A DNA stretch of 64,000 nt. Origin: Ignavibacteria bacterium (GTDB taxonomy: Bacteria; Bacteroidota; Ignavibacteria; Kapaibacteriales; UBA4661). The notes beneath the pieces are model-generated. The model saw only the letters and a program-made list of their open reading frames with translations. It was not told the DNA's origin and did no database searches. This document shows, piece after piece, positions 181 to 61,424 of the stretch. Each line of letters begins with the position of its first letter. The first letter of the stretch is position 1. The stretch spans positions 30,197-94,196 of the forward strand of contig JAAFIV010000014.1 of assembly GCA_013298775.1 (NCBI GenBank). The letters are read 5' to 3'. The position numbers were made by a program, and so were the translations under genes.

Positions 181-983
181 TAGAAAAAAATCGTGGAGAA
201 AACGAAGATGAAAATGAAAAATGTGTTCGTGGGATAGAGTGCCAGTAAAGTACACCAGCAAAGTACAATTTACCAAAGCCTCAAAGTTAGGGCTTTTTAC
301 GATACTAACGAACAAAAAAGAGTGAAGAAATGTTAAGGTTTGTGCTTTTCAATCATTCCAAAAGAACCCAGATTTTGCACTTTTTTGATGAATTGCTCCG
401 AAATGGTCAAAAAAAAGCCTCTAGGACATTTCCAAAGGAATAATGTTGGTAGCGGTAGAAAAATGCCCTAGCTTTGCACCCATATTTATTACGCTGTTGT
501 TATGTTTTGTAGTTCCGTTTGTATGCCTGTCTGTATCAGGCTTTTAGGGGAAATAGTATTATCGAGAAACAGCGCAAAGTTCAGAGGAAAGGCACTTTTT
601 GAGTATCATTCAAGGAGTGTTTTTTGTAGATTACGTGCTTGTTCAGCATGTACTCTGTTCTTTTTTTGCTAAGGTTTGTGCCGGATACCGATAGATATTG
701 CTCTTGTTTTTCCCTCAGGCTATCGTGTTTTTGTCTTGCCCGCCTTGCACTTTGTTCATGTTTGTTTGTAGGAATTGTTTGTAGAAAACTCTGTTCCGTT
801 GGAGCATGGGTAACTGGTGTTCTGTTTCTCTGCGGAACGTCTCTGGTACTCGTATGCGCTGCCGGATGGTATCTATTGTGTGCGCTATGTTTGTAGCGTG
901 CATTCCTACTATTTTGAACAATGCTCGTGCTGCTGCGTTATGTACGTGCTGCGTGCCTTCGTTATCTTGCTATACTTAACTTT
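181..983 (+). promoter_or_regulatory. Unusually long (about 800 nt) non-coding leader/promoter region upstream of the LOV kinase; G+T-rich, A-poor from about 600
   Basis: No credible ORF (only a Cys/Leu-rich low-complexity 85-aa frame); T-rich tracts; small stem (aagcc...ggctt) plus T4 at about 275-300. Confidence 0.3.
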
Positions 984-2171
984 ATGACCATTCCCTACAA
1001 TTTGCTGGACTATGTTCTGCAACATGCCCCCATTGGTATTACCCTTGCCGATGCCTCTCGACCAGACACGCCGATTGTCTATACAAATGCAGGTTTTACG
1101 AGCATCACAGGCTATTCTTCGGAAGAAACTATTGGAAAAAATTGCCGCTTTCTCCAAGCCCACGACACGAATCAACCGTCGGCGCGGCTTATGAATCACG
1201 CAATGAGCAGCGGAAAGGGCTGCCGTGTGGTGCTACGCAATTATCGCAAAGATGGCACTCAGTTTTGGAATGAAGTTACGCTCATTCCGATTTTTGATAA
1301 AAGCAATGCAGTAACGCATTTTCTCGGCGTTCAGCACGACGTAACGTCTCAGCGTCAGTACAATGAACTCTTGATTGCCTACGATGTTATCAATGAGCAA
1401 ATGGTGAATCTTGAAGCACAAAGCGAAGAACTACGCCGCGTGAACGACCAGTTGCACGAAAGTAATGCTCGTATCAACGACTTAGCTGCCCTTCTTGCCC
1501 ATGACCTGCAAAACCCCATTTCAGCAATGATGAGCTTTGTTGAGGTGTTGCGCGATACCGACCTCAATCTTTCGCAAGAAGATATGAAGATGTATGCGAA
1601 TGTCGCCTATGAAACAGCAGAGCGCATCCTGCCGATTATCAAAAAGCTCATGGATGTAGGACGCTTGGCGAAGCAGCAAATAGAGCCGCTTAAACTTTTT
1701 GTCCTGAATGCCTCCACCACCGCAGAGCTGTTGGCAAATGGATATCGTTATCGTGCGGAAACAAAAAATATTCAACTTGATATTGATATTCCCAAAGAAT
1801 TTTGGGTGATGGCAGACGAAAGCGCACTGTATGAAGTGCTGGATAATCTTATCTCCAACGCTCTTAAATACACGCCGCAAGGGAAAAAGATTGGTGTGCG
1901 GATGAGTTCCGCCGCCAATACAAACTCTAATGTTGTGCGCATTGAAGTCTGGGACGAAGGACAGGGTTTCAGTGAGACTGACCTTCAAAAGATATTCCGC
2001 CAAAGTGGAATGCTTTCTGCACGCCCTACGGGTGGAGAAAGCTCCACTGGGCTGGGCTTGATGTCGGTAAAAAGCCTCGTTGCGCAGATGAAAGGAAAGG
2101 TATGGTGCGAGAGCGTTTGGGGCGAAGGGGCGCGGTTTTTTGTAGAATTACCTTCGGTGCAAAAACGATAA
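984..2171 (+). CDS. LOV-domain (blue-light, flavin-binding PAS) sensor histidine kinase
   Basis: Canonical LOV signature GKNCRFLQ with the flavin-adduct cysteine; PAS core (YTNAGFTSITGYSSEE...RKDGTQFWNEV); coiled-coil linker; H-box AHDLQNPISAM with His; N box ISNALKYT, G1 VWDEGQGF, G2 GGESSTGLGL. ATG at 984 (MTIPYN); the upstream part of the 921 ORF looks non-coding. Confidence 0.85.
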   Translation: MTIPYNLLDYVLQHAPIGITLADASRPDTPIVYTNAGFTSITGYSSEETIGKNCRFLQAHDTNQPSARLMNHAMSSGKGCRVVLRNYRKDGTQFWNEVTLIPIFDKSNAVTHFLGVQHDVTSQRQYNELLIAYDVINEQMVNLEAQSEELRRVNDQLHESNARINDLAALLAHDLQNPISAMMSFVEVLRDTDLNLSQEDMKMYANVAYETAERILPIIKKLMDVGRLAKQQIEPLKLFVLNASTTAELLANGYRYRAETKNIQLDIDIPKEFWVMADESALYEVLDNLISNALKYTPQGKKIGVRMSSAANTNSNVVRIEVWDEGQGFSETDLQKIFRQSGMLSARPTGGESSTGLGLMSVKSLVAQMKGKVWCESVWGEGARFFVELPSVQKR

Positions 2172-2179
2172 CTTCACCT

Positions 2180-2911
2180 ATGCTCTCTACCGAGAAAGAA
2201 TTACCGCGCCTTTCGCGCCTCAGCGCAACGCTGACCTTGCTTCAAACCAAGCGTATTGTGAGTGCGCCGGAGCTTGCCGCACACTTCGGCGTGAGCGTCC
2301 GCACGGTGTACCGCGATATTCGTGCGTTGGAGGATTCTGGTATTCCGATTTGCACCGAAGAAGGCAAAGGGTACTCGCTCGTGGAGGGTTTTTCGCTGCC
2401 ACCCGTGATGCTGAGTCAGTCGGAAGCAAATGCACTCTTGACGGCAGAGAAAATTTTGGTGAATAATAGCGATGCCTCATTAGCAAAAGAATATCAAGCA
2501 GCAATAGCAAAAATCAAAGCCGTGATGCGCTTTCCAACGAAAGAGAAGTTGGAAATCCTGCAAAAGCGCATGGTTGTTCGCAAGTCGCGCACAGAAGCGC
2601 AATCCCCGCAAAGCACGTATTTATCAACCTTGCAGATGGCAATTACCGATTCTTTTTGTGTGGAGATTGTGTACGAATCACTTCACGACCACGCCACTAG
2701 CGAACGTGTTGTAGAGCCGCTTGGCGTGTACACAAGCCAAGATGGGAACTGGGTATTGGTAGCGTGGTGCCGTCTGCGCAATGAACATCGGTCGTTTCGC
2801 TTGGATTGTATTCGCCGTCTCACCCTGCTCTACGAGCAATGCCCAAAGCCAGAGTTTAGTTTAGAGGAGTATTTTGCCGAGTGCCTGCGTCTGCAGAAAT
2901 ACCATACTTAA
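2180..2911 (+). CDS. WYL-domain transcriptional regulator (YafY-like; HTH + WYL + C-terminal extension)
   Basis: N-terminal DeoR/HTH_11-like helix-turn-helix (TKRIVSAPELAAHFGVSVRTVYRDIRALEDSGIPI); WYL hallmark GNWVLVAWCRLRNEHRSFRLDCIRRL; ATG at 2180, 9 nt after the kinase stop. Confidence 0.8.
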   Translation: MLSTEKELPRLSRLSATLTLLQTKRIVSAPELAAHFGVSVRTVYRDIRALEDSGIPICTEEGKGYSLVEGFSLPPVMLSQSEANALLTAEKILVNNSDASLAKEYQAAIAKIKAVMRFPTKEKLEILQKRMVVRKSRTEAQSPQSTYLSTLQMAITDSFCVEIVYESLHDHATSERVVEPLGVYTSQDGNWVLVAWCRLRNEHRSFRLDCIRRLTLLYEQCPKPEFSLEEYFAECLRLQKYHT

Positions 2912-3198
2912 AAAGGGTAAGACGCTCTTCCCGTCCTAGCTACGGCTGAGGACGAAGAACGCCGTCGTCGTAGGGTTGTACGGTATGCAATTTCTACCCT
3001 TACTCAGTATAACCAAGGGGTAGTGTCTCTTTTGCAATTACCGACTTTGGGCAACGCGGCATACTGTCTTTTCTCGTGCTTCCATGAACGCTGTGTCAAT
3101 TCCTGCTCATTCTCTGCCAAACCTTGCGTATATTGCGATGTGTTTGCCACCCATTCAAGCTGCTTCCATACTTCATCTCTATTCATTGTCATTGCCAC

Positions 3199-5622
3199 AT
3201 GTCCTCATTATCACAGCCTTCGGTGCCGCGTGAAAACCCATCGCGTGAACATTTATCACACGAAAACATGCCAGTTGAAAATGCCTCTTTTCCAAAAGCA
3301 GGTGGCAATCAGCGTGTTGTGAAAATTGGCTCGTGGGAGCGCGACCTTGCAACGGGGCGTATTTACTGGTCTGCAGATGCACGCGCTATTGTTGGATTTG
3401 AAGAGCATGAGGTTTGGACTATTGAAGAATATATCGCACATATTGTGCATCCTCACGACCGTGAGCGCGTGCAAGAAGCAATTCGTTATGGCATAGAGCA
3501 AGGCACGGGTTATGAAATTGAATATCGTATTCTCGTCTCGCCTTCACGCTCGGCGCATGCGTATTCGAGGAAGCACCTATCGCGCCAAGGCTCCATTGAA
3601 AAAACGGTACTCGTGTCGTGCATTATGAGCGAGTCACTGAGCGGAGTAGAGCATGAATTTGAAGCGCGTGAAGATGGCGCACACAAACGTTTACACGGCA
3701 CAATTCAAGACATTAGTGCGCTTCGCGCCACCGCAAGCGAACTCGACACACAACGCTTTCTTTTGCGAGAATCTCAAGCGATTGCCAAAATTGGCGGTTG
3801 GGAATACGACCTCGCTTCAGGAAATCTTTTCTGGACGGACGAGTATTATCATCTTATTCGCCGCACGCCGGAGGAATATCCCGCAACCATTGATAATTAC
3901 TACGCTCTTGTGCATCCCCACGACCGCAAACGCGTGTACGACGACATGCAAGCCGCACTGCAGGGCAAAAGCGACGCATTGGAATATCGTATTGTGCTGC
4001 CAGACGATACTGTGCGGCATATTCGCGGGTACGGAGCGGTAGTGCGCTCTGGAGCGGACGAGCGGATTGTTAAGTTGCGGGGTGTCATTCAGGACATCAC
4101 CGATAACAAACGCTCAGAACAAAAGCTGAAGCGGCTGACCGATATTTTGAATCAAGCGCAACACCTGACGCAGCTTGGTTCGTGGGAACGCGACTTACGC
4201 ACAGACGAACTCACATGGTCGGATGAATTCTTTCGCCAACTAGGATACGAAGCGCAGCAATTTCAGCCAGAAGCAGGATATTTCCTGACACACGTTCACC
4301 CCGACGACCGCCATATCGTGAAAGAGGCTATTTCTGCTCTTGTACGGAATGATTTTTCTTCTATTCCAGAATCGCGCTTTATTGAGTATCGCCTTATTCG
4401 CAGCGACGGCACAACGCGCTACATGCGCGGCACGGGCGGGAATATCGTGAATTCACGCGGAGAAGTAACCGTGATTTTTGGCACGTTGCAGGACATCACC
4501 TATCTCCAAGAGGCTCAGCAACGCTTGGAAGCAAGCGAGCGGAAGTTTCGCCAGCTTTTTGAGCAATCTACTCTTGGGAAGCTGATTTTCACGAGTGCCT
4601 TACAGCCCTTGCAAGCAAACACGGCACTGCTGGAATTATTGGGGTACTCGGCAGAAGAGCTGCTCACGACACCGCATCAGAACTTGTTTCACGAAGATGA
4701 GCGGCATCGTTTTACCGAGCATTTGCAGGCGTTGCTCTTGGGGAATATTCCCCTTATCCATACCGATGTTCGCCTCCGCACGAAAGCTGGAAGCACGATT
4801 TGGTGCCGCGTGCAGGTCTCTATCTTTGAACAGCACAATGATACTATTGAGCGCAATATCCTCATGACCGCAGAAGACATCACGCAATATCGCCAAGTGG
4901 AAGCAGCAATTCAAAAAACGCTCCAGCGCGAGCGCGAGACCTTCGACCAACGCAACCAAATCATTGCGCGGCTCACGCAGCAACTTCAAACGCCGCTCAG
5001 TACGATTTCGCTCGCAAGTAATATCATGCACAAGCATCATTTCAAAATGCCAGAAGAGAAGATTTCATCGTACTTCGGGAGCATTTCGGAAGCGATTGAG
5101 GAAATTCAATCATTGATGAGTAATATGGTTCTCATGGGAAAACTGGAAACCGGACGCGCCCAACTCCAACTTGCGCCGCTCAATTTTACCTCGTACAGCA
5201 AACGCCTTCTGAGCGAATTTACCTCGAAGTACAGCCATCGCCCTGTTGAAGCCACGTTCAACTTACCAGAAAATACACCCGCGCTGATTGACCATGAATT
5301 ACTGCGCCTGATTGTCTGGCATTTGTTGCTCTTTTTGGATAAAGGTTTAGCAAAAGGATTGCCAATACAATGCGCAATCGAGGTGGTCTTTGCTTCAGGA
5401 ACGCAGCTTGCAAGCAGCATAGAATGGTACTTTTCCTGTACAGACAGCCGTTACGACGACATTGCGGCTCTGCTTCAAGACAGCGAACATGCCACAAGCG
5501 ATGCCTCCGAAGTCGGCTTGGCAACGATTCAGCAAGCAGTACAACTGCACGGCGCACATCTCAGGGGCAAAAACTCTGGTACAATGCTGAAACTGGCGTT
5601 GCAACTGCCGTTGCCGTCGTAG
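3199..5622 (+). CDS. Multi-PAS sensor pseudo-histidine kinase (three PAS_3-like domains plus PAS, degenerate DHp and ATP-binding domains)
   Basis: Three repeats of the GSWERDL..G...WSDE PAS_3 pattern (GSWERDLATGRIYWSADA; GGWEYDLASGNLFWTDEY; GSWERDLRTDELTWSDEF) plus a fourth PAS; H-box position reads LTQQLQTPLSTI (His replaced by Gln); C-terminal domain lacks recognisable N/G1/G2 boxes. Confidence 0.75.
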   Translation: MSSLSQPSVPRENPSREHLSHENMPVENASFPKAGGNQRVVKIGSWERDLATGRIYWSADARAIVGFEEHEVWTIEEYIAHIVHPHDRERVQEAIRYGIEQGTGYEIEYRILVSPSRSAHAYSRKHLSRQGSIEKTVLVSCIMSESLSGVEHEFEAREDGAHKRLHGTIQDISALRATASELDTQRFLLRESQAIAKIGGWEYDLASGNLFWTDEYYHLIRRTPEEYPATIDNYYALVHPHDRKRVYDDMQAALQGKSDALEYRIVLPDDTVRHIRGYGAVVRSGADERIVKLRGVIQDITDNKRSEQKLKRLTDILNQAQHLTQLGSWERDLRTDELTWSDEFFRQLGYEAQQFQPEAGYFLTHVHPDDRHIVKEAISALVRNDFSSIPESRFIEYRLIRSDGTTRYMRGTGGNIVNSRGEVTVIFGTLQDITYLQEAQQRLEASERKFRQLFEQSTLGKLIFTSALQPLQANTALLELLGYSAEELLTTPHQNLFHEDERHRFTEHLQALLLGNIPLIHTDVRLRTKAGSTIWCRVQVSIFEQHNDTIERNILMTAEDITQYRQVEAAIQKTLQRERETFDQRNQIIARLTQQLQTPLSTISLASNIMHKHHFKMPEEKISSYFGSISEAIEEIQSLMSNMVLMGKLETGRAQLQLAPLNFTSYSKRLLSEFTSKYSHRPVEATFNLPENTPALIDHELLRLIVWHLLLFLDKGLAKGLPIQCAIEVVFASGTQLASSIEWYFSCTDSRYDDIAALLQDSEHATSDASEVGLATIQQAVQLHGAHLRGKNSGTMLKLALQLPLPS

Positions 5623-5654
5623 AGTTTTTTTGAGAACATGTTTGGAGAAATACA

Positions 5655-5697
5655 AAAGCCGCTTCGTACCTGGTATGAAGCGGCTTTTTGAGGTTTT
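5655..5697. terminator. Bidirectional rho-independent terminator between convergent genes
   Basis: aaaagccgcttc-gtacctggtat-gaagcggctttt, flanked by T-runs on both strands. Confidence 0.6.
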
Positions 5698-5710
5698 AAG
5701 TATGTATTTT

Positions 5711-7213
5711 CTAAAATCCACTAAACGGAGAGACTAATCTTGCATTACGAGCAATCACGCGGTTCATGTCCCAGCGCATCGTTACAGTTGTTCCGCTTAC
5801 CGTAAATTGGTCCATTTCGTCATCTGGTGGAACAAAATCAGGAACGATTACCTTCGCATCTGGTCCATTGCCTGCTGCTGCCAAAAGCGTCGGGTTTGTA
5901 TCAATCTGACGACGTGGTAACGGCAATTTAATCGCTAAGTCTTCAATGCGACGACCTTCGCAGAAAAAGATATGCTGACGCAAAAGAAAGAGCATTGCAA
6001 GGTGGTCTTCGCGGTTGCGGCTCGACAATGCCGCAACGCTATCAGGCGTTTGGTTGGTGTACGAAATGCCATATACAGGAACCGTTCCTGGACGGCGCAC
6101 AATCAAGCCCGCAACGGCTGGTGAATTTGCATCCGCACGAACATTTAGGGTTGCAACGTTTGGTCTATTTGGGCGTGTATCGCGGTCGTTCATCATACGG
6201 ATAGGGCGATTACGTGCTACGCGTGCAGCACTGCTCATAGACTCACGTGCAGCATCAAGGTTATTATTGGAGAGCGCAATTTCAGCCAAAATCAAGTGCG
6301 CTTCTTCTGCCTTCAGACTTGGGTGCGGGTCGTTGACCGTCGCGGCAACAAACATATATTTTGGGTCAAGAAAATCCAAGCGTGGATTTGGTTGAAACGC
6401 ATGGTCGGTGCGGTTCGAGACAAAGTCTTGAATCGCACTACCAAGATTGATAACGTCATACGTTGCCGTAAAGACATACTCTGGGCTACGCATTAAACCC
6501 GCCCGTGCAAAAAATGCTGCGCTATCCTTGTTGCCTTCCAAACGATAGATGCGAGCAAGGGCATAGTTACAGCGAGTGATAATCTCTGCCGCCGTAATTG
6601 CTGGGTTTGCACTAGCATCGGTTGCTTGAGTACCTGTTGCACCTGTTGCGCGGCGTAGTGCCTCACGGAATGCAGCGATACTTTGCTTACGGGCATCGGC
6701 TGCCGGTACAAGTGGTCCGTTTTCTACAAGTGGAAAGCGAACAAATTTTTCGGACAGCATCATCAGTGCCATACCTTTGAAGAAGAATACTTGTGCGCGT
6801 TGTGCGTCGGTTGCCAAGAGGTCTTGCGCATTATCAACGGTATTCTTGATACCAAACTCCGCCAATGAGAGTAGTGATTGTGTGCCAATATACGCCCCAC
6901 CAACCGTAATATCATTCAAATCTACGGTGCGTGGTAAATCGAGCTGTACTGAAACAAACGTGGTTACATTCTTGTAGTTATCAGAGACAATTTCACATAC
7001 TTGTGAGTTGTTTGCCACAGCCGAAGCAAACTGCCGCCGCAAGCCTACGGCAACGGCGCGTGTAGCACCATTCGGACCTGCCAAAAGTTGAGGTTCGGTT
7101 GTTGCGGGATTCTGAACTTTTGTAACATCTATCAGGTCGCAGCCCGCAAGCACAAAAAGAGCAATAACCATGCTCCCAATGACGTGTATGCGAGAGAATA
7201 CAAAATTTTTCAT
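5711..7213 (-). CDS. SusD/RagB-family outer-membrane nutrient-binding lipoprotein
   Basis: Lipoprotein signal with LAGC lipobox; about 500 aa; immediately downstream of a SusC-like TonB-dependent receptor; start taken at MKNFVF (ATG 7213). Confidence 0.75.
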   Translation of the reverse strand: MKNFVFSRIHVIGSMVIALFVLAGCDLIDVTKVQNPATTEPQLLAGPNGATRAVAVGLRRQFASAVANNSQVCEIVSDNYKNVTTFVSVQLDLPRTVDLNDITVGGAYIGTQSLLSLAEFGIKNTVDNAQDLLATDAQRAQVFFFKGMALMMLSEKFVRFPLVENGPLVPAADARKQSIAAFREALRRATGATGTQATDASANPAITAAEIITRCNYALARIYRLEGNKDSAAFFARAGLMRSPEYVFTATYDVINLGSAIQDFVSNRTDHAFQPNPRLDFLDPKYMFVAATVNDPHPSLKAEEAHLILAEIALSNNNLDAARESMSSAARVARNRPIRMMNDRDTRPNRPNVATLNVRADANSPAVAGLIVRRPGTVPVYGISYTNQTPDSVAALSSRNREDHLAMLFLLRQHIFFCEGRRIEDLAIKLPLPRRQIDTNPTLLAAAGNGPDAKVIVPDFVPPDDEMDQFTVSGTTVTMRWDMNRVIARNARLVSPFSGF

Positions 7214-11940: not shown

Positions 11941-12576
11941 TCAGTGAAATTGCTCCAAGAAGGTTTTGAGTTGGTCGAAGCAGGGATGGTCGAAGTTCCA
12001 GACCTTTTGCTGCGCCGCAAGCCCAACCTGATAGGTAAATGGCGTTGCAATGGACAAATACGCCAGTGCCTGACGTTTTTGATACTTTACGGTTTCGCTG
12101 CTCATTCCTGTACAGCGCATGAAATCATTGATGCAGCGTAAAGAATCTTCAGAAATAGACTGGAGACACAAATCTTCCAACATCCCAGCATCGTGATTAT
12201 TGGGCATCACGAATATCGCAATTTGTGGCGAGCCACTTGATAAGCTGACTAGCTGCGTTGGTGCGACAAAGCCCGCTTTTTCAAGATGATATGTGAAACT
12301 GTTAAAAGTAGATTCCGCTTTCTCTACATCAGCATCTGCCACAAATCCTATCTTCTGGACGTTCTTTACTCCTGGTCTAACGGGGAGCGAGCGAATAGTT
12401 GGCTCAAATTCTGGCTTTCCTTGAATATCAATGCACTGAATACCAGTAATGTCAAGGTGTTTGAGCATTTTTTCAATCAGAAGTTCTTCGTCTTTTCCCT
12501 CAAGGATTAGGATATTTTTTGCAATAAGCTCTGATGAATTTTTCGGTGTATCTGTGCCTGGAAGAGTAGTATTCAT
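11941..12576 (-). CDS. Small TOPRIM-like protein (DUF4435/DUF4276/DUF3226-type), partner of the upstream ABC-type ATPase; candidate effector nuclease
   Basis: 211 aa. N-terminal ILILEGKDEE (Toprim-like conserved Glu), IGFVADADVEK (DxD), later acidic cluster FVMPNNHDAGMLEDL. ATG overlaps the ATPase stop by 4 nt (ATGA at 12573-12576). Confidence 0.5.
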   Translation of the reverse strand: MNTTLPGTDTPKNSSELIAKNILILEGKDEELLIEKMLKHLDITGIQCIDIQGKPEFEPTIRSLPVRPGVKNVQKIGFVADADVEKAESTFNSFTYHLEKAGFVAPTQLVSLSSGSPQIAIFVMPNNHDAGMLEDLCLQSISEDSLRCINDFMRCTGMSSETVKYQKRQALAYLSIATPFTYQVGLAAQQKVWNFDHPCFDQLKTFLEQFH

Positions 12577-60260: not shown

Positions 60261-61424
60261 TTATGCCGTATATAAGGGAAATGTCACCGTGAACGTCGAG
60301 CCTTTTCCCAGTTCGCTTTCGCATCGAACGCTCGCATTCATTTTTTCAGCAAATTTTTTGACAATGGACAAGCCAAGCCCCGTTGAATCTTCCCCACCCG
60401 TCGGCATGGCACTGAGGCGCGTGAATTTTTGAAACATCCGCGTTTGGTCTTCGGCACTAATTCCTGGACCTTCGTCGCGCACGGAAAAGCGGATGGTACC
60501 TTCATTTAGCACAGTTTCTAGCCAAATATTTGTTCCGGGAATGCTGTATTTGATGGCATTGGAAAGAAGATTTTCCACGATATGGTGGCAGAATACTTCA
60601 TCGCCCCAAATCATGTCGTGTGTTTGCGGAGTAACGTGAAGCGTAAGCTGCTTGGCTTCGGCACGGAGGCGAAAATCTGCCGCAATAAGCTCGGCTAACG
60701 CGGAGAGATTGAAAGGAATAATATTGATGCTGAGATTGCCTGATTCCAGCGCGTGCATATTCAGCAAATTGCGAATAAGATTACTCATTCGCGATGTCGC
60801 ATTCGTGATTTCCCGTCCGAATTTGCGGTAGTCTTCGTGCTGAAAGCTCAGTTCCTCGCCGCTTTGGATAATATCGCCAATGCCGATAATTGCGTTCAAG
60901 GGATTCTTCAAGTCATGGACAATAATATCCAGAATCTCGCTTTTCTCGTGGTTTGCAGCCTGTAATTCTTCTAATGTTTTTGTCAGCGCGACCTTTTCTT
61001 CCGAAAGGAAGAAGTGGTCGAAACATGCGCGAATGATTTCTAGCAAATCGGCATTGCGCCAAGGTTTGGTGAGAAACCGATAGACATTCCCACGATTGAT
61101 GCTATCGGTAATATCTTGCACATCGGTATAGCCCGTCAGCACAACCCGCACGGTTTGTGGCACATAGCGGATGGATTCCGCAAGAAATTCCGTTCCTGAC
61201 ATACCAGGCATTCGTTGGTCGGCGAGAATAACCTGCGGAATAAAGCCTTGTTTGAGTATTGCCAGTGCCTCTTCGCCCGAAGTTGCTGTTTTGACAGTAT
61301 AATGCGATACAAACAGCAATTCGAGCGTTTTTACTAAATCTGGTTCATCGTCCACAATTAAGAGCTTTCTGTCGGAGAGCGCGTCGGTAGTGGCTTCTGT
61401 ACCAGAGGCTTGTATTTTGAGCAT
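60261..61424 (-). CDS. Hybrid receiver-histidine kinase (N-terminal REC + HisKA + HATPase_c)
   Basis: REC: KLLIVDDEPD...ILADQRMPGMSGTEFL...K; H-box IVHDLKNPLNAI; N LSNAIKYS, G1 VRDEGPGI, G2 GGEDSTGLGL. Confidence 0.85.
   Translation of the reverse strand: MLKIQASGTEATTDALSDRKLLIVDDEPDLVKTLELLFVSHYTVKTATSGEEALAILKQGFIPQVILADQRMPGMSGTEFLAESIRYVPQTVRVVLTGYTDVQDITDSINRGNVYRFLTKPWRNADLLEIIRACFDHFFLSEEKVALTKTLEELQAANHEKSEILDIIVHDLKNPLNAIIGIGDIIQSGEELSFQHEDYRKFGREITNATSRMSNLIRNLLNMHALESGNLSINIIPFNLSALAELIAADFRLRAEAKQLTLHVTPQTHDMIWGDEVFCHHIVENLLSNAIKYSIPGTNIWLETVLNEGTIRFSVRDEGPGISAEDQTRMFQKFTRLSAMPTGGEDSTGLGLSIVKKFAEKMNASVRCESELGKGSTFTVTFPLYTA

Follow-up and report, generated by a model that had tools for sequence, protein, structure and literature searches.

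Few histidine pseudokinases have been described, to our knowledge. In DivL, the dead transmitter core binds DivK~P and the signal is relayed to its PAS domains (PMC4211667); RetS, which does not bind ATP, blocks GacS through a DHp-DHp heterodimer (PMC8498467); and PsmA, with a PAS-PAS-DHp-CA arrangement devoid of the acceptor histidine and of the ATP motifs, is a component of a polar scaffold (PMC12963549). Here, we analyzed a stretch of 64,000 nucleotides from an Ignavibacteria bacterium (contig JAAFIV010000014.1, positions 30,197 to 94,196; hereafter the window) and, within it, a gene whose product carries the automated annotation "PAS domain protein". With a probability of roughly 0.6, this product is a soluble histidine pseudokinase made of four PAS domains, a HisKA-type DHp, and a domain with the CA fold. 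Judged from its sequence, it most likely acts as a PAS-linked, phosphorylation-independent binder of a partner, and the role of "scaffold or modulator" that an initial annotation of the same DNA had proposed would be plausible.

The catalytic motifs were compared with those of active kinases. The H-box of the pseudokinase reads L592-T-Q594-Q-L-Q-T598-P-L (TQQLQTPL) versus the canonical SHEFRTPL. It is in register with FIANISHELRTPL of HK853 and with the SHEFRTPL of nine canonical kinases, and Gln594 aligns exactly at His260 of HK853 (IIARLTQQLQTPLS versus FIANISHELRTPLT). In the same alignment, WHLLLFLDKGL of the pseudokinase stands against LNLLNNGVKYS of a solved kinase, and the nine canonical cores give the same register as the solved kinases. 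A column census was then taken over 107 canonical kinase cores recovered by an exhaustive search (see below), against a family consisting of the window protein and its three full-length orthologs, P0002, P0003, and P0004. The acceptor histidine, found in 106 of the 107 cores, corresponds to Q, Q, H, and H in these four proteins, respectively; the acidic residue at H+1 (E/D, 104/107) to Q, Q, N, and Q (Gln595 in the window protein); and the arginine at H+3 (106/107) to Gln in the whole family. The Thr/Asn at H+4 (105/107) is a Thr in all four, Thr598 in the window protein. The N-box Asn, present in every core (107/107), is Phe712 throughout the family, the upstream N-box Asn (103/107) is His708 in the pseudokinase, and K715 is kept in the canonical cores and in the family alike. 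The DxGxG sequence is absent at the G1 position, both in the alignment to the nine cores and in the census. The G2 glycines (107, 106, and 107 of 107 cores) correspond to A/S/D/H (Ala769 in the window protein), Glu771, and Gly773, and the Phe residues of the canonical F-box are Ile/Val and Leu in the family (Ile and Leu in the window protein).

The replacement of the phospho-acceptor histidine by Gln, claimed by the initial annotation, is thus borne out by the register with HK853, with the nine kinases, and across the census. The same annotation had listed the N, G1, and G2 boxes as missing; the N and G1 boxes are indeed lost, whereas G2 is not wholly absent, as G773-L774 remain, and the loss of the F-box has to be added to the list. 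Judged from the alignments, these substitutions are neither due to chance nor an alignment artefact. As the acceptor histidine, the H+1 acid, the N, G1, and F boxes, and most of G2 are lost, canonical ATP binding and phosphorylation at the canonical site are predicted to be impossible. Given that the acceptor histidine, the H+1 acid, and the nucleotide-binding motifs are all replaced and that the substitutions are under purifying selection, the proposal of a catalytically dead protein appears strongly supported on sequence grounds. A cryptic active kinase, using another histidine and a non-canonical nucleotide site, has almost no probability in our view: the histidines on which it could draw, His611, His613, and His614 at the hairpin end of DHp helix 1, are about 17-20 residues off the canonical site and none of them is invariant (the family variants read MHKHHF, MHKYHF, MQKHHA, and MQKHYE), while bulky or charged residues stand in place of every Asn, Asp, and Gly of the canonical Mg-ATP contacts. 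The initial annotation had named an alternative histidine combined with a cryptic ATP site as evidence against its proposal; the family alignment contains no invariant histidine anywhere in the DHp (residues 562-650), and no complete cryptic ATP site was found.

Regarding the domain architecture, the Pfam search of the pseudokinase gave PAS_3 with 171.7 bits over several stretches and PAS, PAS_9, and PAS_4 at residues 450-565. Together with the structure model, these matches give four PAS domains, in line with the three PAS_3-type and one further PAS domain noted initially. In the comparison with the HisKA and HATPase_c hidden Markov models that had been suggested as a check, HisKA (PF00512) matches residues 584-652 barely above its gathering cutoff (27.1 versus 26.9 bits), and HATPase_c (PF02518) has no match in the Pfam search even at E <= 1. 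The NCBIfam kinase models cease aligning near residue 710, where the N-box is expected to start. Neither a REC domain nor a hydrophobic segment was found in the protein by Pfam and sequence inspection. In the exhaustive HMMER search, the alignments to ordinary kinases span the entire DHp and CA region (query positions 1 to ~225-242) with E values of ~1e-14 and 21-27% identity, and they constitute independent, sequence-based evidence for the fold. A structure model of residues 565-807, based on a 25-sequence alignment (predicted local distance difference test score, pLDDT, 83.7; predicted template modeling score, pTM, 0.72), was used for the fold search. Foldseek against the PDB returned HK853 at the top (template modeling score, TM, 0.72, E 1e-14), followed by RetS, WalK/YycG, DivL, and others; since canonical kinases are contained in the alignment behind the model, this match is partly expected and counts as supportive rather than independent. 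From the full-length AlphaFold model (4-sequence alignment, mean pLDDT 62.3, pTM 0.26), only secondary-structure boundaries were taken; these delimit PAS-like modules at residues ~41-171, 198-299, 327-432, and 460-560, behind which a long helical hairpin and, at the C-terminus, an alpha/beta domain are located.

The ratio of nonsynonymous to synonymous substitution rates (dN/dS) was calculated by the Nei-Gojobori method, domain by domain for the window gene versus its closest ortholog (P0002, locus L003), as well as for more distant pairs. The whole gene and its PAS array both give 0.11, the CA-like domain 0.10, and the DHp 0.03, values that are approximate because dS, at about 1.0-1.3, is near saturation; in the more distant pairs where dS is unsaturated, 0.08-0.27 was obtained. 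These ratios point to purifying selection, strongest in the DHp, and by this measure exclude pseudogene decay. As the DHp is the most constrained part even after the loss of the histidine, it can be argued that its surface is still in use. That the gene would be a decaying, functionless relic of a kinase gene is highly improbable, although every catalytic motif has been lost, considering that the reading frame is intact at four independent loci, that dN/dS is 0.03-0.2 in every domain, and that the substituted motifs are invariant across orthologs of 55-77% identity. On the basis of the sequences, the protein is functional in the evolutionary sense and is predicted to be unable to autophosphorylate or take up phosphate at the canonical site through the canonical chemistry.

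The family appears to be very small and, from the sequences recovered, seen in Kapaibacterium-like Bacteroidota. Among 5.8 billion clustered proteins, only the three full-length orthologs were recovered, with identities to the window protein of about 76-77% (P0002), 58% (P0003), and 55% (P0004), and PF02518 was found in none of them. The exhaustive HMMER search of 1.84 billion representatives gave only two matches below 1e-30 (clusters at 50% identity), followed by the ordinary kinases at ~1e-14. A word-indexed search with the C-terminal 243 amino acids was not informative, returning a lone fragment (P0121), and the exhaustive search took its place. A GTDB scan placed the closest ortholog in a metagenome-assembled genome of "Candidatus Kapaibacterium sp." (Bacteroidota, family Kapaibacteriaceae). 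While the substituted CA motifs are common to all members and invariant among them, the H-box differs within the family, as the histidine is kept in P0003 (SHNLQTPL) and P0004 (SHQLQTPL) and is a Gln in the window protein and P0002. The acceptor codons are CAG in the window and CAA in L003 for Gln, and CAC and CAT for His in the orthologs of loci L001 and L002; as the Gln codon is seen in independent assemblies, it is not a sequencing error. Since the dead CA domain is common to all members, and the histidine is present in the distant members and all outgroups, parsimony suggests that the family ancestor had already lost ATP binding and that the histidine disappeared afterwards, on the branch that includes the window protein. 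By analogy with PhyK, ChpT, or RetS, the His-bearing orthologs may act as a relay or as a sink for phosphate (PMC5964349). PAS domain 1 contains an insertion of ~30-40 residues (~114-163; nucleotides ~3538..3687), modeled with low confidence, which is present in the window protein and P0002 and absent from the His-bearing P0003 and P0004; therefore, it co-occurs with the change from His to Gln.

The stepwise loss within one small family, together with the invariant remodeled CA motifs, is the most interesting aspect of this protein, and could hide a new binding function. One can envision a two-step conversion of a kinase, in which the CA domain would have lost ATP binding and gained a new invariant surface or pocket (with W707-H708, F712, D714-K715-G716, W743, C747, and E771 as candidate residues) before the change from His to Gln, and in which the His-retaining stage would be an HPt- or RetS-like relay state, persisting in P0003 and P0004. 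Such a new pseudokinase mechanism we consider unlikely. Should the remodeled CA domain have acquired a novel binding partner or ligand, or should Gln594 and Thr598 form a new phosphatase center, this would be a variant of the mechanism and not a plain loss of function.

For the partner-binding pseudokinase that we favor, the following mechanism can be proposed. The conserved DHp surface would recognize a partner, either the receiver domain of a response regulator or the DHp of a true kinase, and the four-PAS array would couple this binding to a signal, as an input or, as in DivL, as an output. The partner-bound state may speed the dephosphorylation of the response regulator, that is, it may correspond to a kinase-negative, phosphatase-positive state. 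A role in dephosphorylation is as conceivable as that of a scaffold or modulator, because Thr598 at H+4 is retained, and some response-regulator phosphatase activity may have remained in the protein. For phosphatase activity, CrdS and HK853 need the Thr/Asn at H+4 but not the histidine or the H+1 acid, the latter being needed for the autokinase (PMC3510030). Accordingly, the H371A variant of CrdS keeps most of its phosphatase activity (CrdA~P half-life of 2.6 min, versus 0.7 for the wild type and 53.5 without enzyme), E372A combines a lack of kinase activity with wild-type phosphatase levels, E372Q is likewise without kinase activity, and N375A has lost the phosphatase activity (PMC3510030). 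The Q-Q-L-Q-T of the window protein matches this residue pattern exactly, although DivL indicates that the Thr by itself does not suffice.

A stronger version, a dedicated PAS-regulated response-regulator phosphatase whose DHp docks the phosphorylated receiver and whose Thr598, perhaps together with the Gln594 amide, positions the hydrolytic water, is possible but doubtful. The invariance of the H+4 Thr in the family and the dN/dS of 0.03 in the DHp are in its favor, as are the CrdS and HK853 requirements. However, no cognate regulator gene is located nearby. In addition, many HisKA phosphatases are stimulated by the nucleotide-bound CA domain, which would be impossible in the pseudokinase. 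PhyP, which has a degenerate CA domain, has been proposed to be a phosphatase (PMC5964349); on the other hand, PleC loses its phosphatase activity upon the H610A exchange (cited in PMC3510030), and DivL has a Thr at the corresponding position, yet is without phosphatase activity (PMC4211667), so that Thr598 is no proof of a phosphatase function.

As a possible partner, the initial annotation had singled out a LOV histidine kinase described as adjacent. A RetS- or DivL-like modulator specifically of this LOV kinase (921..2171), acting via a DHp-DHp heterodimer or a shared regulator, is very unlikely. The LOV kinase is genuine (GKNCRFLQ motif, PAS_9/HisKA/HATPase_c domains, YtvA-family LOV at 142 bits) and is encoded on the same strand, about 1 kb upstream, and the ortholog of locus L001 is also found between true kinases. 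Nevertheless, a WYL/HTH gene (2102..2911) separates the two genes, which places the LOV kinase two genes away. The kinases flanking the L001 ortholog, an unrelated REC-HisKA-HATPase_c protein upstream and a Pkinase-AAA-GAF-HK protein downstream, are only 23% identical to the window's kinases, and their orthology with the LOV kinase was rejected. At L002, the neighbors are a metallo-beta-lactamase-fold protein, an M20 peptidase, and citrate synthase, and at L003 they are PriA, PanB, an amylase-family enzyme, an AraC regulator, DUF4269, and IMPDH, with no kinase beside the ortholog at either locus. In total, a LOV kinase was found near the ortholog at 0 of the 3 loci, the window locus being the only one to have it. 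A special similarity of the pseudokinase DHp to the window's own kinases was rejected as well, since the similarity is only generic (15.6 bits against the DHp of the LOV kinase). Moreover, L003, the closest ortholog locus, shares essentially no gene with the window besides the pseudokinase itself. Because the neighborhood is not shared and no ortholog locus has a LOV kinase, the gene context gives no support for the LOV link, and modulation of this kinase, as originally suggested, is not upheld; the gene neighborhood does not indicate a partner. Genes for DUF4269 and IMPDH are located downstream of the ortholog in L001 (10856..12868) and L003 (10442..12491) and not in the window; their presence in two of the three related loci suggests that the window copy is in a rearranged neighborhood.

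Several points weigh against the reading as a partner-binding pseudokinase. A conserved neighborhood was considered as a clue to the partner, and no neighbor is common to the four loci (the window, L001, L002, and L003). The only REC domain detected in the 64-kb window is that of the hybrid kinase at 60261..61424; a stand-alone receiver gene was not found there. To these are added the inactive Thr of DivL, the near-saturated dS, and the fold match that was partly expected, all described above.

The coordinates of the gene, its domains and motifs, and of other features of the window are compiled in Table 1. The maximal open reading frame of the pseudokinase (ORF; 3124..5622, plus strand) encodes 832 amino acids when counted from a TTG at 3124; this is the length given in the initial annotation, which is at odds with its own coordinates, 3199-5622, since these yield 807. 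The first ATG of the ORF is at 3199, its product is identical to the protein deposited at NCBI (P0001), and in the family alignment the ortholog N-termini show no conservation before about residue 38. An Rfam scan of the window gave no match, and a promoter/terminator scan of 2000..5900 gave counts near the shuffled expectation, Bacteroidota-type promoters being outside of the models of the scan.

As for the surrounding genes, the first ~21 residues of the LOV kinase ORF are perhaps upstream of the true start. The true start of the WYL gene is probably later, because the maximal ORF overlaps the end of the LOV kinase by 70 nucleotides; WYL regulators are often in control of defense or stress loci. 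Downstream of the pseudokinase, on the opposite strand, genes for a TPR-like protein and a TonB-dependent receptor are found; TonB-dependent receptors with CarboxypepD_reg domains occur in the window, consistent with Bacteroidota. The hybrid kinase has a core that resembles that of the LOV kinase (HDLxNP H-box); with the core of the large kinase beside the L001 ortholog, it shares 44% identity. The DUF3226 gene is possibly nuclease- or defense-related.

Table 1. Features of the pseudokinase gene and of selected neighbors in the window (window coordinates; residue numbers refer to the pseudokinase unless stated otherwise).
Feature	Coordinates	Strand	Basis or remark
Pseudokinase coding sequence	3199..5622	+	ATG start, stop included; 807 aa
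PAS domain 1, residues ~41-171	3319..3711	+	PAS_3 and PAS_11 matches; model strands/helices
PAS domain 2, residues ~198-299, PAS_3 type	3790..4095	+	Best PAS_3 stretch 210-297; model elements
PAS domain 3, residues ~327-432, PAS_3 type	4177..4494	+	PAS_3 in several stretches; model elements
PAS domain 4, residues ~450-561, generic PAS/PAS_9/sensory_box	4546..4881	+	Pfam PAS 450-561; TIGR00229 444-570
DHp (HisKA) helical hairpin, residues ~562-650	4882..5148	+	HisKA 584-652; model helices 566-616, 619-651
CA-like (Bergerat-fold) domain without nucleotide-binding motifs, residues ~659-807	5173..5619	+	DHp+CA alignment, Foldseek
Gln594 codon CAG, phospho-acceptor position	4978..4980	+	Codons and alignments
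N-box remnant W707-HLLLFLDKG-L717	5317..5349	+	Mg/ATP Asn replaced by Phe712, upstream Asn by His708; invariant in family
G1-box position I741-EWYFSCT-D749	5419..5445	+	No DxGxG
G2-box remnant D768-ASEVGLATI-Q778	5500..5532	+	Of GxGxGL only G773-L774 left
LOV blue-light histidine kinase	921..2171	+	GKNCRFLQ; PAS_9/HisKA/HATPase_c; YtvA-family LOV model 142 bits, residues 28-153 of the kinase
HTH_11 + WYL regulator	2102..2911	+	Between LOV kinase and pseudokinase; 288-nt gap after
DUF3226 protein	11941..12576	-	Weak OLD-like TOPRIM match; adjoins UDP-GlcNAc 2-epimerase gene
Reg_prop/Y_Y_Y propeller sensor kinase with HATPase_c, 1294 aa	51390..55274	-	Domain matches
REC-HisKA-HATPase_c hybrid kinase, 387 aa	60261..61424	-	Domain matches

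In comparison with known systems, the canonical PAS-HisKA-HATPase_c kinases (e.g., HK853, PDB 2c2a/3dge) have the same fold and homologous DHp and CA domains (21-27% identity, TM 0.72), but their catalytic residues are all replaced in the pseudokinase. From the set that defines an active HisKA kinase, the protein has the DHp and the H+4 Thr and lacks the histidine, the H+1 acid, and, from HATPase_c, the N, G1, and F boxes and a full G2 box, whereas it shows what characterizes a histidine pseudokinase, namely, homology over the full length of DHp and CA, lost catalytic residues, and a gene under selection (dN/dS 0.03-0.2). ChpT, PhyK, and PhyP (PMC5964349) also combine a DHp with a CA fold and function as relays or phosphatases without autophosphorylating; by analogy, the ancestral, His-bearing state of the family may plausibly have resembled them, although the relay requires the histidine that is absent from the window protein, and their domain context and lineage are different. 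RetS of Pseudomonas aeruginosa (PDB 6dk7/6dk8; PMC8498467) has a HisKA-type DHp-CA that has lost ATP binding and keeps its histidine, like P0003 and P0004; its relation to the pseudokinase is visible in a weak full-length sequence match (E 0.039) in addition to the fold matches. It differs from the window protein by the retained histidine, a periplasmic sensor, transmembrane helices, two receiver domains, and the lack of a PAS array, and a RetS-like hybrid sensor was ruled out for the pseudokinase, which has no REC domain, hydrophobic segment, or acceptor histidine.

DivL of Caulobacter crescentus (PMC4211667; PDB 4q20, among the Foldseek matches) is likewise a multi-PAS HisKA-type protein without the acceptor histidine. 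However, it has a Tyr at the acceptor position and a highly conserved CA domain with weak nucleotide binding, and it is an alphaproteobacterial, membrane-anchored protein linked to DivK and CckA. The "DivL-type" label of the initial annotation can therefore be kept as an analogy only; the window protein is no ortholog of DivL, given the Gln in place of Tyr, the degenerate CA domain, the Bacteroidota relatives, and the fact that no DivK-like gene was found in the window. The studied pseudokinases DivL, RetS, and PsmA have each exposed non-linear two-component wiring, and a further example is added here from a poorly studied Bacteroidota lineage, in a family with natural His and His-less forms of a dead-CA protein that offers a test of the role of the histidine without ATP binding. 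Still, the gain is incremental, as the class is known and no partner or phenotype can be inferred from the present evidence. PsmA of Streptomyces venezuelae (PMC12963549) also has a DHp and a CA-fold domain behind tandem PAS domains. Within one lineage it is conserved, its acceptor histidine is replaced (by Gln in some species), and its key ATP-binding residues are unconserved. It differs in having a long disordered linker, a C-terminal receiver domain, and DivIVA targeting at hyphal tips, and belongs to an unrelated lineage, with no orthology shown. On these analogies, PsmA would be a nearer functional analogue than DivL, and the window protein appears to be a further, lineage-restricted member of the class of histidine pseudokinases already known from DivL, RetS, and PsmA.

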